A stretch of DNA of 61,620 bases. Origin: a virus (taxonomy: Duplodnaviria; Caudoviricetes). The translations under genes and the position numbers were made by a program. How positions within the stretch are numbered: position 1 is the stretch's first letter; the number at the start of each line of letters is the position of its first letter. The notes under the pieces are model-generated. The model worked only from the letters and a program-made list of their open reading frames with translations, made no database searches and was not told the origin of the DNA. The stretch spans positions 1-61,620 of the IMG/VR virus record IMGVR_UViG_3300022921_001235; one strand, 5' to 3'. Positions 25,599 to 28,505 of this stretch are shown here, one piece after another.

Positions 25599-26387
25599 TT
25601 AGAAGTTGAACGATAGTCCTGCTGTTGGAGTAAAGTCTTCTGTGTCAACATTGTAGTTAGCACCTGCTGCAAATGTTGCACCAGCTACATCCATTGTGTA
25701 CTCACCACCGATGTTTTGTAGTGCGTCTGTGTCGTCACCGTTTAGGTATGCTGTTAAGCCACCACGTGTTGCTACAGTTTCAAAACCAAATGTTTCACCA
25801 TCTACATCGTAAGTCATTGCGCCACCTAGTGATGCTACGCCTAAGTCAAGACCGCTAATGCCTGCACCTAGTACTGTGTTTTCACTGTCCAAGTTGTAGT
25901 CAGCTGCTGCTGTTACATCTAAGTTTGCTACGTTCAATGTGTAAGCGCCTTGAATGTTGCTTACGTCTGTTACATCTGTTGTCCAGTCTGTAAGACCTAC
26001 TGCAACTACTGCATCGCCTACAGTTACTTGTACTGCTTCTGCCATTGCTGGTGCTGCTAGTGTTTGCTCACCTTCTGCGCCTGGCATTACGCCTAGGTCA
26101 TCACCAATTGCAACACCTACGCCTGCTACAGTTGTGCCAACTGCCCATGTGTCTAGTGTTACTGCATTGCCGTCTGTTGCAACAAAGTCTAGATCGATTG
26201 TTGCCAATCCACCCATATCTACACCTAGGTCCAGACCCATTGTTCCACCAAACTTGTCGTTTGCTGTTTCAGCAAAGTCAAGTGATACTTCACCTGATAG
26301 TACTGGGGTTGCTACTGTTGTTTCTTCAGCAAATGCTGCTGTTGAAATAGCCATAGCGGCTACTGTTGTAATAAATACATTACGCAT
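25599..26387 (-). CDS. porin-like outer-membrane beta-barrel
   Basis: Signal peptide (A-F-A), LSGEV first strand, acidic amphipathic beta strands, terminal Phe (GLSFNF). Confidence 0.75.
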   Translation of the reverse strand: MRNVFITTVAAMAISTAAFAEETTVATPVLSGEVSLDFAETANDKFGGTMGLDLGVDMGGLATIDLDFVATDGNAVTLDTWAVGTTVAGVGVAIGDDLGVMPGAEGEQTLAAPAMAEAVQVTVGDAVVAVGLTDWTTDVTDVSNIQGAYTLNVANLDVTAAADYNLDSENTVLGAGISGLDLGVASLGGAMTYDVDGETFGFETVATRGGLTAYLNGDDTDALQNIGGEYTMDVAGATFAAGANYNVDTEDFTPTAGLSFNF

Positions 26388-26937: not shown

Positions 26938-27036
26938 TTAAGATATCAACATAAAGATAGTTCCAACAAACATTAAAATACCCACTAGTGGTAATGTAAT
27001 GCGCTGAAGTCTAAGATATTTTTTGTTACTTATCAT
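26938..27036 (-). CDS. 32-aa single-TM microprotein (not in ORF track)
   Basis: MISNKKYLRLQRITLPLVGILMFVGTIFMLIS; SD TAAGGA. Confidence 0.5.
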   Translation of the reverse strand: MISNKKYLRLQRITLPLVGILMFVGTIFMLIS

Positions 27037-27176
27037 TTTTGTGTGTTCCTTACAGTTTCAGAGTGGTGCGTTTTGTATCTCACTATTTGTAACCCGATGT
27101 TCTAACCCTAGTTTTATAGGCACAACCTCTTACCCAGCCAGTCTAACTATGTTAAACCTTTTTACCGTCTGTAAGT

Positions 27177-27367
27177 GGGGAGCATTCTGTTGCCCGGGGC
27201 TCCCCTAACCGCGAACTTGCCCTTAGGCTGCTTCTAGGACTTCAAAGTCAAAGAAAAGTTCAGGTTTGAAATTTGCGTTTGCAATTATCATTTTCGTTCG
27301 CGGTAACGGCGCTTACATCCCGGTAACTCCACTCTTCTATCCTGCCTGTCGATCCTATTTCGACCCC
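27177..27367 (-). ncRNA. ssrA: two-piece (permuted) tmRNA, coding piece; tag (A)ANANFKPELFFDFEVLEAA*
   Basis: Starts GGGGTCGAAATAGGATCGAC; ATAATT-GCA resume context; tag ends in AA-stop; 3' hairpin GGGGAGC...GCTCCCC. The 3' end is approximate. Confidence 0.9.
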
Positions 27368-27368
27368 A

Positions 27369-27479
27369 TCAAAAGGATTCTACTTTACCACATTTTTGGC
27401 ATTTGCGTCTAATACGGTTTGTTTTCGTATATGCGTTTACGGTTTTAAACCATTCCCAAGTGTGTTTATGCCAAAACAT
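27369..27479 (-). CDS. 36-aa putative zinc-binding microprotein inside the tmRNA intervening segment
   Basis: MFWHKHTWEWFKTVNAYTKTNRIRRKCQKCGKVESF*; SD AAGGA 7 nt upstream. Confidence 0.6.
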   Translation of the reverse strand: MFWHKHTWEWFKTVNAYTKTNRIRRKCQKCGKVESF

Positions 27480-27492
27480 AATAAAATCCTTT

Positions 27493-27555
27493 TGGTGGAG
27501 TCGCCGGGTACCGCCCCCGGGTCCAGTTCAGTCGTCAAATCGCTTCAACATTACA
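27493..27555 (-). ncRNA. ssrA: two-piece tmRNA, acceptor piece
   Basis: ...GGAC-CCGGG-GGCGGTA-CCCGG-CGACTCC-A-CCA; CGACTCC pairs with GGGGTCG including the G3-U wobble. The 5' end is approximate. Confidence 0.9.
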
Positions 27556-27559
27556 AGTA

Positions 27560-27590
27560 TATTTATACACTGGTATTAAGTGTTTGTCAA
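27560..27590 (-). promoter_or_regulatory. tmRNA promoter (sigma70 plus overlapping T4-late-like TATAAATA)
   Basis: TTGACA(27590-27585)-17 nt-TATAAA(TA). Confidence 0.75.
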
Positions 27591-27611
27591 GAGTTTTTTT
27601 TAACAACTCCA

Positions 27612-27818
27612 TCAAACCCGTTCCTTCCTGTCACAGACCTGACACTGCCGCCATTTGTCTGTTATTAATTCGGTAAATCCAAGAGTGATTATAGCAAAGA
27701 AAGTTCTTTCAACGCTATCTACCTTTTGACCTCTCACTGGACCATCCTTGAAGATGTCATGGCGTGTATCTTTCCAGCATCGCTTGCAGTATCTGATTTC
27801 AGTTTTTGCCATTGTCAT
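27612..27818 (-). CDS. small zinc-ribbon protein
   Basis: CKRC...H and CQVC flanking a hydrophobic segment. Confidence 0.55.
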   Translation of the reverse strand: MTMAKTEIRYCKRCWKDTRHDIFKDGPVRGQKVDSVERTFFAIITLGFTELITDKWRQCQVCDRKERV

Positions 27819-27898
27819 AAGCCTTTACATTTTTACAACACCAATATAACACATTACATATGGATGTCAAGTTCTTTTTCTGTTTACTACTGGTTTCA

Positions 27899-28252: not shown

Positions 28253-28292
28253 TAGAACGTGTGCCTTTACATTGTTACAACACTAATATAAC

Positions 28293-28505
28293 TTACCATT
28301 TGGGCATTGTCAAGATCTTTTTTTGACTGCGAACAGCATCCATAAGTCTTACCAGTTGCTTGGAGGTGTCATATGGATAGTTGCTACCGTTCTTTGTTTT
28401 CCATTGTGTGCTGTTGTTGCACTGCTTTGAGAATTCTTTGTGTAGTAGTTGGTCTAAATAATCTAAATCTGTTTCGCTAAGTTGCGCTATCTTCGAGGTT
28501 ACCAT
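28293..28505 (-). CDS. hypothetical protein
   Basis: Short ORF in a minus-strand run. Confidence 0.5.
   Translation of the reverse strand: MVTSKIAQLSETDLDYLDQLLHKEFSKQCNNSTQWKTKNGSNYPYDTSKQLVRLMDAVRSQKKILTMPKW

Follow-up and report, generated by a model that had tools for sequence, protein, structure and literature searches.

The DNA analysed here (IMG/VR record IMGVR_UViG_3300022921_001235, positions 1 to 61,620; hereafter the window, meaning the whole stretch of 61,620 nucleotides) carries on its minus strand a complete, circularly permuted gene for transfer-messenger RNA (tmRNA), the two pieces of which are separated by an intervening segment (IVS, or spacer) of 125 nt holding a 36-codon open reading frame (ORF). 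The comparison of this spacer with those of related loci, made at the sequence level, leaves very little doubt that protein genes under selection reside in the tmRNA spacers of phages, and the ORF of the window is itself a likely case of an expressed cargo gene. As a whole, the observations are probably best explained by an exchangeable cargo gene that rides on the tmRNA promoter and whose Shine-Dalgarno (SD) sequence and start codon lie in a hairpin.

The 36-codon reading frame in the tmRNA spacer

The IVS (27368..27492, minus strand) stands out as an insertion with respect to both Rfam models matching the gene, and its absence from the mature tmRNA is deduced by homology. It reads AAAGGATTTTATT-ATG, followed by 35 more codons, TGA and T. 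Its 5′ end, AAAGGATT, is complementary to its 3′ end, AATCCTTT, and an SD-like AAGGA (27487..27491, minus strand) lies in the 5′ strand of the basal stem. Seven nt past this AAGGA, the ATG (27477-27479) opens an ORF of 36 aa (27369..27479, minus strand; MFWHKHTWEWFKTVNAYTKTNRIRRKCQKCGKVESF), the translation of which contains the residues H4, H6, C27 and C30; its TGA (27369-27371) is followed by a single T and then by the GGGG of the tmRNA coding piece. What a preliminary description had stated about the sequence (125 nt, AAGGA, ATG, 36 codons, TGA and terminal complementarity) is correct in every point on the minus strand.

A spacer was considered gene-like when an SD-like tetramer stood 4-11 nt before the start codon, the start fell in the first 40 nt and the ORF covered at least 60% of the spacer. 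This joint feature of SD, start and ORF was obtained in 1.85% of the shuffles of the window spacer (p 0.0185). Concerning codon usage, the frame of the ORF has the best score of the three sense frames and lies above 93% of the out-of-frame windows, a weak signal.

Spacers of related tmRNA genes

A 32-nt exact pattern, made of the T arm and the CCA end, retrieved 92 stretches from viral contigs, and anchors with a gap of 110-140 nt gave 12 further stretches from metagenome contigs. The spacer was delimited in 92 loci (designated L plus a number), corresponding to 57 unique sequences of 25-266 nt; L057 was recovered later, bringing the unique spacers to 58. A TGAT terminus is present in 56 of these 58, and almost all unique spacers have a complementary 9-14-bp stem at both ends. 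The stop codon of the window ORF is therefore placed in a conserved leader, and its last codons in a conserved stem.

Gene-like ORFs are found in 15 of the 19 unique spacers of at least 110 nt, against 0.36 expected from shuffles, and in one of the 38 shorter ones (2.5 expected), with no reverse-strand gene-like ORF among the 57 unique spacers. L057, missed by the script, also fits the gene-like layout by eye. As for the long spacers that fail, L095/L104 (113 nt) have no ORF, and L018 and L064 have an ORF of 34 and 43 aa, respectively, with SD and ATG, covering less than 60% of the spacer. In both L064 (130-385) and L018 (4356-4562), this ORF is accompanied by a further structured module similar to the ORF-less spacers of other loci, and each of the two spacers looks like a fusion of two spacer units.

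A bacterial control of 32 permuted tmRNA spacers of 110-140 nt, from genome and metagenome-assembled genome contigs, contained no gene-like case (1.78 expected). The sole bacterial-type candidate encountered is L102 (2482-2591), a 110-nt spacer on a 138-kb GC-rich, bacterial-looking contig, which passes the test with GGAGG, ATG and 35 codons running into the coding piece, and whose structure is extremely strong (-53.6 kcal/mol); it is probably due to chance.

The cargo ORFs of the phage spacers are mutually unrelated, their products being short and hydrophobic, Cys-rich, very basic or, in the window, His/Cys-containing. Among the 13 types of ORF-bearing spacer, seven have their SD (AAGGA or GAGGA) within the basal stem, where the opposite strand carries compensating bases, and in the other six it follows the stem. 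All nine ORF-bearing tmRNA genes that were checked exceed the gathering score over the full Rfam models, and these tmRNAs look intact. In L094, L096, L099 and L060, the spacer ORF passes the conserved TGA position and reads into the mature coding piece, with a stop 13 nt inside this piece in the first three and farther in L060; in these loci, the coding sequence therefore overlaps the mature tmRNA.

Cassette exchange and selection on the cargo genes

The tmRNA backbone was compared over 130 positions (60 nt of the acceptor piece and 70 nt of the coding piece). The backbone of the window is identical to that of L104, with its ORF-less 113-nt IVS, at 129 positions, to that of L062, with a different ORF, at 128, and to those of four further loci, with four other spacer types, at 123-125. 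On this comparison, the spacer is a hypervariable cassette slot on a near-constant tmRNA backbone.

The same small-gene family can be found inside and outside the slot, as indicated by L062/L100 and their homologue in the window. The spacer ORF of L062 (4032-4124) shares 16 of 26 residues (62%; BLASTP, E 7e-12) with the product of a free-standing, membrane-type 32-aa ORF lying just downstream of the window tmRNA (26938..27036, minus strand), which also has its homologue in the L100 IVS. Between the L062 and window copies, 16 of about 19 synonymous sites are changed, and the synonymous divergence (dS) is saturated.

A larger sample was available for the 62-aa cargo family of the L034 spacer, which has 147 relatives in viral contigs; the analysis was made on the best 80 of them. 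The position of the gene relative to the tmRNA was determined with ARAGORN and with nhmmer profiles of both tmRNA pieces. The gene is inside the spacer in 31 of the 80 loci, directly upstream of the acceptor piece in 13, 430-650 nt upstream in 10 and elsewhere in one; no tmRNA was found in the remaining 25, some of which are at contig ends and some of which probably have a divergent tmRNA. For the ratio of nonsynonymous to synonymous divergence (dN/dS), three rows not 186 nt long were dropped, identical sequences were collapsed, and pairs with unsaturated dS above 0.05 were used. The median dN/dS is 0.18 inside the spacer (20 unique sequences, 186 pairs), 0.16 upstream of the tmRNA (12 unique, 53 pairs) and 0.14 where no tmRNA was found (19 unique, 118 pairs). 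The variable positions at codon positions 1, 2 and 3, out of 62 each, number 29, 15 and 51 inside the spacer, 34, 25 and 52 upstream, and 37, 25 and 58 in the third set.

The in-spacer copies of this family share one common type of stem-encoded C-terminal tetrapeptide, and the free-standing copies end otherwise. In a tree of the gene (52 unique rows of 186 nt), the in-spacer copies do not form one clade and at least four changes of position are forced, the number and direction of the moves not being fixed by a tree of so short a gene with 25 of the 80 loci unclassified for position. In the cultured phage Melnitz (L190; MZ577097.1, 1489-2155), the homologue is gene 85, annotated as 'hypothetical protein', which ends 4 nt before ssrA. 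The same phage has a glutamine riboswitch aptamer (RF01739, 52.8 bits) after the tmRNA. In L160 (650-800), a 28-nt spacer retains the AAGGA-bearing stem, and 46 nt separate the acceptor piece from the 62-aa gene upstream, the product of which has a stem-type C-terminus; the slot of L160 seems to have been emptied. A cluster of 105 members, present on many contigs and named only 'hypothetical protein', includes the exact L034 protein. The Melnitz, L160 and L034-cluster observations fit a mobile cargo gene.

Other cargo genes were compared in pairs. L094 and L096 are separated by a dN of 0.099 and a dS of 0.562, and the in-spacer copy of L030 differs from the free-standing one of L109 by a dN of 0.05 and a dS of 0.346; this L109 copy is on the opposite strand, on a contig whose tmRNA spacer carries another ORF. 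Between L051 and L103, there is a single change, which is synonymous. Judging from these substitutions, four cargo families other than the window ORF are demonstrably under purifying selection at the protein level, in-spacer copies included. The dN/dS comparison among relatives that the preliminary description had put forward is thereby informative for these four families; for the window ORF, there were no diverged copies to compare.

The window peptide, its copies and metatranscriptome contigs

A phmmer search of 1.84 billion representative proteins returned two matches to the window peptide (E 7e-4 and 8e-4). Both are bacterial surface-type proteins with repeats of the form H-x-W-x-x-W ... 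C ... R-x-C-x-x-C-G-x-x-E, and the peptide is identical to one repeat at 15 of 32 positions (BLASTP). A profile made from the repeats only picks just the three IVS ORF copies among the 26,375 six-frame ORFs of all loci collected. The E-value of this profile match, 5e-12, is inflated, as likeness to the peptide was the criterion by which the repeats had been chosen. The ligand set of the matched modules is H + C + CxxC, to be compared with H4, H6, C27 and C30 in the window peptide. The product of the ORF, as its sequence suggests, would most likely be a microprotein of the zinc-ribbon kind, in which H4, H6, C27 and C30 act as the ligands. The appearance of a zinc-binding microprotein, noted earlier from the residue pattern, gains some support from this database-wide match to a His/Cys module, and none from Pfam families or from the Protein Data Bank, where a sequence search with the peptide gave nothing significant (best E 4).

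The window IVS ORF is present in three records, namely the window, L016 and L101, with two substitutions in 125 nt overall, and the reading frame and SD are intact in all three copies. L016 is from the same phage population as the window (99.75% identity over 10,849 nt). L101 is a different phage, which has a 330-nt block in common with the window at 93.6%, and this block is recently exchanged. The L101 IVS differs at two bases, the first base past the CCA and the start codon, where ATG is replaced by TTG.

The region is present in four salt-marsh metatranscriptome runs (X1-X4). In X1, X2 and X3, contigs span the whole IVS without any difference, DNA carry-over being possible in these libraries. 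In the contigs of the same three runs, the word depth is 23-32 in the IVS and 13-16 in its flanks, again with DNA possibly present; at least 31 letters past the CCA side are found in the X2 contig only, and past the GGGG side in none. In X4, no contig crosses the IVS interior. Apparent joints across 27368-27493 in the metatranscriptomes were rejected, as they come from other tmRNAs with other spacers.

Structure of the tmRNA locus

The tmRNA gene is of the two-piece, alpha type (ARAGORN 'tmRNA*', 27132-27585, minus strand). It matches RF01849 (alpha_tmRNA) over its full length (model positions 1-355) with 130.6 bits for a gathering score of 50, and RF04321 (tmRNA_permuted), also over its full length (1-213), with 101.9 bits for a gathering score of 47. 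The order is permuted: the acceptor piece (27493..27555, minus strand; RF04321, RF01849, ARAGORN), which comprises the 3′ half of the tRNA-like domain with the T arm and terminates with CCA at 27493, lies upstream of the coding piece (27176..27367, minus strand; ARAGORN, Rfam), the 5′ end of which is at 27367. The 7-bp acceptor stem pairs the 5′ GGGGUCG of the coding piece with CGACUCC-ACCA of the acceptor piece, and its third pair is G3-U70. A G3-U70 pair in the acceptor stem confers alanine identity.

The tag frame, from Ala to stop, encodes ANANFKPELFFDFEVLEAA (27223..27282 with the stop, minus strand; ARAGORN, coding part 304-363 of the gene). With 19 aa this tag is unusually long, and its LEAA terminus is also unusual; the tags of sister loci end with ALAA or LAA, e.g. 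ANDNYAPEMALAA and ANENFALAA.

A -35-like hexamer TTGACA (27585..27590, minus strand) and, 17 nt past it, a -10-like TATAAATA (27560..27567, minus strand) would form the promoter of the tmRNA, as read from the sequence. The window and most of 12 related loci have TTGACA-N17-TATAAAT(A) ahead of the acceptor piece; the promoter scan left TTGACA-N17-TATAAATA unlisted because its -10 ends in A. The -10-like element equals the T4-type late-promoter motif, 5′-TATAAAT-3′ being given as a T4-like late promoter in PMC9004378. No promoter-like site or terminator was found between the two tmRNA pieces.

The window is a viral contig fragment estimated to be 22% complete. Its NrdA is nearest to those of large myophages (56-64% identity), and its source is a large marine or estuarine phage encoding its own alpha-type two-piece tmRNA. 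No SmpB gene was found within the 61.6-kb fragment.

Hairpin and proposed expression of the cargo gene

The precursor is predicted by ViennaRNA to fold at -66.3 kcal/mol (z -3.86), and none of 200 shuffles folds as well. In this fold, the acceptor helix extends into a helix of ~24 bp, of which the 5′ arm (27468..27492, minus strand) includes the SD and the AUG, and the 3′ arm (27372..27402, minus strand; pairs 1-121 through 25-91) codes for K26-F36, with CQKCG and the last codons. The strands of the stem are thus shared, with the SD on the 5′ strand, and the last codons and stop on the 3′ strand and leader.

The cuts in a permuted precursor are attributed to RNase P and tRNase Z (PMC3985003), and the intervening sequence is not part of the mature tmRNA (PMC11915505). 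With this background, the following scheme is proposed. The spacer ends would form a conserved stem of 9-14 bp prolonging the acceptor helix, and between them the slot would contain a short structured RNA in some loci and, in others, a small protein gene equipped with an SD and a start codon of its own. The window ORF, a cargo gene of this kind having no promoter of its own, would be transcribed within the pre-tmRNA from TTGACA-N17-TATAAATA, and its last codons and stop would at the same time serve as the basal stem's 3′ strand and as the conserved UGAU leader that precedes the processing site. Its translation would use either the precursor, probably during transcription while the 3′ arm of the hairpin is still missing, or the spacer after its excision. 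While translating the ORF, a ribosome would transiently block the formation of the acceptor helix and, having arrived at the stop, would sit over the cleavage site and the beginning of the coding piece; translation of a given molecule should thus preclude its maturation, and vice versa. We infer this coupling between translation and processing from the stop 1 nt from the processing site and from the predicted hairpin over SD and AUG.

In the strongest form of this idea, the stem would do triple duty, extending the acceptor helix, giving the SD, and giving the last codons and stop. A translating ribosome would melt the acceptor helix, and mature phage tmRNA would rise when ribosomes are stalled or scarce, the locus being a built-in sensor that ties ribosome availability to the production of the ribosome-rescue RNA. 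This form, in which the IVS is a dedicated exchangeable expression slot that senses ribosome availability and lowers mature tmRNA when free ribosomes are plentiful, is a rather improbable one in our estimation.

Alternative explanations

Several points weigh against the window ORF being an expressed gene. The main one is the ATG-to-TTG change of L101, which also stabilises the hairpin, from -26.8 to -29.6 kcal/mol. Moreover, the AAGGA and the AUG are both buried in the predicted ~24-bp helix, so that initiation would be hindered. The length of the ORF alone is unremarkable, an equal or longer ORF being obtained in 34.5% of the interior shuffles, and one antisense frame of the IVS ORF outscores it in codon usage. 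A selection test on the window ORF is impossible because there are only three near-identical copies. Searches for relatives gave little: tblastn of the 36-aa peptide against phage genomes yielded one match (E 0.7), three degenerate back-translated patterns of the peptide led to L016 only in viral contigs, a back-translated pattern had 21 matches in genome contigs, all of them out of frame, stop-ridden or profile-negative, and the exact 36-aa peptide is not in a collection of 15 billion proteins. Concerning the peptide itself, no Pfam family matched at E-values up to 10 and the PHROG matches are weak (best E 0.006). The second ligand of the repeat modules, the middle Cys, is Tyr/Thr in the peptide, in which an extra His is present; metal binding would therefore need the second His. 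The earlier claim that a protein-coding gene fills the segment accordingly holds as a property of the class, with its frequent SD-bearing cargo ORFs and four constrained families, and less firmly for the window ORF, with its three near-identical copies, one of which has TTG instead of ATG.

The alternative that survives best, though we judge it unlikely, is that the ORF is a by-product, the spacer being a non-coding structured hairpin that guides or times processing, and AAGGA, ATG and frame being accidental. The strong hairpin over SD and AUG (precursor z -3.86) would suit such a role, but clearly selected cargo genes, e.g. the L034 family, also have their SD in the basal stem. That the sole natural start variant is TTG, with a more stable hairpin, points the same way, although TTG, a legitimate start codon, is still usable. 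An accidental frame would agree with the ORF length (p 0.35) and with the ORF-less IVS of similar length on a near-identical backbone (L095/L104, 113 nt); it agrees poorly with the joint feature (p ~0.02) and with gene-like ORFs in 15 of 19 long phage IVS compared with none of 32 bacterial ones. Finally, no homologues or Pfam family of the window peptide were found, whereas the peptide matches a recurrent His/Cys module database-wide (E 7e-4).

A formerly functional cargo gene that is now silent or decaying, with the hairpin tightened around its start, is very unlikely. The L101 variant with its more stable stem, the very narrow distribution of the family (three records) and the fact that slots can be emptied, as in L160 (28 nt between CCA and GGGG, with the gene upstream), are in line with decay; the frame and SD are nevertheless intact in 3/3 copies, and the two substitutions in total give no sign of it. 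As for a real gene on the plus strand, a 90-aa ORF (27396-27668) is open there and one antisense frame has the top codon-usage score, but the 90-aa ORF starts with TTG and runs antisense through the conserved acceptor piece and promoter, the conservation of which is accounted for by the RNA gene, and none of the 57 unique IVS has a reverse-strand gene-like ORF, which makes this explanation hardly credible. An expressed cargo gene in the tmRNA spacer is thus retained as the preferred reading.

Neighbouring features

Downstream of the tmRNA, the window encodes a secreted protein of 262 aa, rich in Gly, Thr and Asp and carrying a signal peptide (25599-26387, minus strand). Similar N-termini come after the tmRNA in L051, L034, L055 and L060, and the synteny from tmRNA to this protein is therefore conserved. 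On the other side, a 68-aa ORF with two CxxC pairs (27612-27818, minus strand) terminates a short distance ahead of the tmRNA promoter; Pfam gave no match for it, and PHROG a weak one to endonuclease VII (E 0.069). Between the small genes upstream of the tmRNA, secondary BLAST matches revealed a repeat of ~63 nt with ~80% identity (27821-27882 and 28263-28325), and a promoter-like TTGACA-16-TATATT is located at 27870-27843.

Comparison with known systems

Phage-borne two-piece tmRNAs have already been described in marine myophages (Pelagibacter phages, Melnitz), as reported in PMC9004378. The tmRNA of the window is similar to the two-piece tmRNAs of Alphaproteobacteria and marine myophages in its order (acceptor, IVS, coding), its match to the alpha-type model, its G3-U70 pair and its tag frame. 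The difference lies in the IVS, treated as non-coding in the two-piece tmRNAs described, whereas in the window and in 13 related-phage IVS types a small gene is present there, with an SD of its own. The cargo homologue of Melnitz (gene 85) is upstream of ssrA and not inside; in loci of the L034 type, it is inside the IVS.

The preliminary description knew of no described case, and literature searches agree: no description of protein genes in tmRNA spacers was found, with the supplements of PMC11915505 and PMC9004378 being sources that may bear on this. Protein genes in intervening sequences are not mentioned in the available text of PMC11915505 nor described in the part of PMC4131195 examined, and the tag frame is the one small ORF linked to tmRNA in the available part of PMC10117765. 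RNA annotation treats tmRNA genes as encoding RNA alone and their IVS as a discarded spacer, so that a class of phage microproteins is systematically masked, with the 36-aa ORF uncollected and the 62-aa family named 'hypothetical protein'.

Genes nested in a part removed from the mature RNA have precedents, since permuted tmRNA genes are known with a tRNA-Ala gene or a repetitive element in the intervening sequence, and group I introns of tmRNA genes with genes for homing endonucleases (PMC11915505). The window IVS differs from these introns in lacking a ribozyme core and in being flanked by the two unligated pieces of a permuted gene. No Rfam family reaches its gathering score inside the window IVS, and a group I intron was rejected, no intron family being at gathering score in the window. 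The phage IVS cargo also differs from intron homing endonucleases in consisting of diverse microproteins, and in the stem strands that double as SD and last codons.

As for bacterial RNAs, one transcript is both a functional RNA and the mRNA of a small protein in SgrS/SgrT and in RNAIII/delta-haemolysin, where the coding part stays in the functional RNA. In the window, by contrast, the coding part is the piece discarded from the functional RNA. The mRNAs of hok-type type I toxins are inhibited by a 5′-3′ fold-back, and some T4 transcripts lock their SD in a hairpin. The window locus resembles these in that the SD and start of a small ORF would be sequestered by end-to-end pairing, and several of the sister cargo ORFs are short and hydrophobic. 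It departs from hok in that no antisense RNA or antitoxin was seen and the window peptide is basic and His/Cys-rich, activation by processing being conjectural. The locus would offer a natural example of one transcript giving a structural RNA and, from its thrown-away part, an mRNA, and a simple testable system for the competition between translation and RNA processing on one molecule. Compared with the known genes nested in discarded parts of structural-RNA genes, what is new, with strong support at the level of the class, is the presence of selected protein genes in phage tmRNA spacers.

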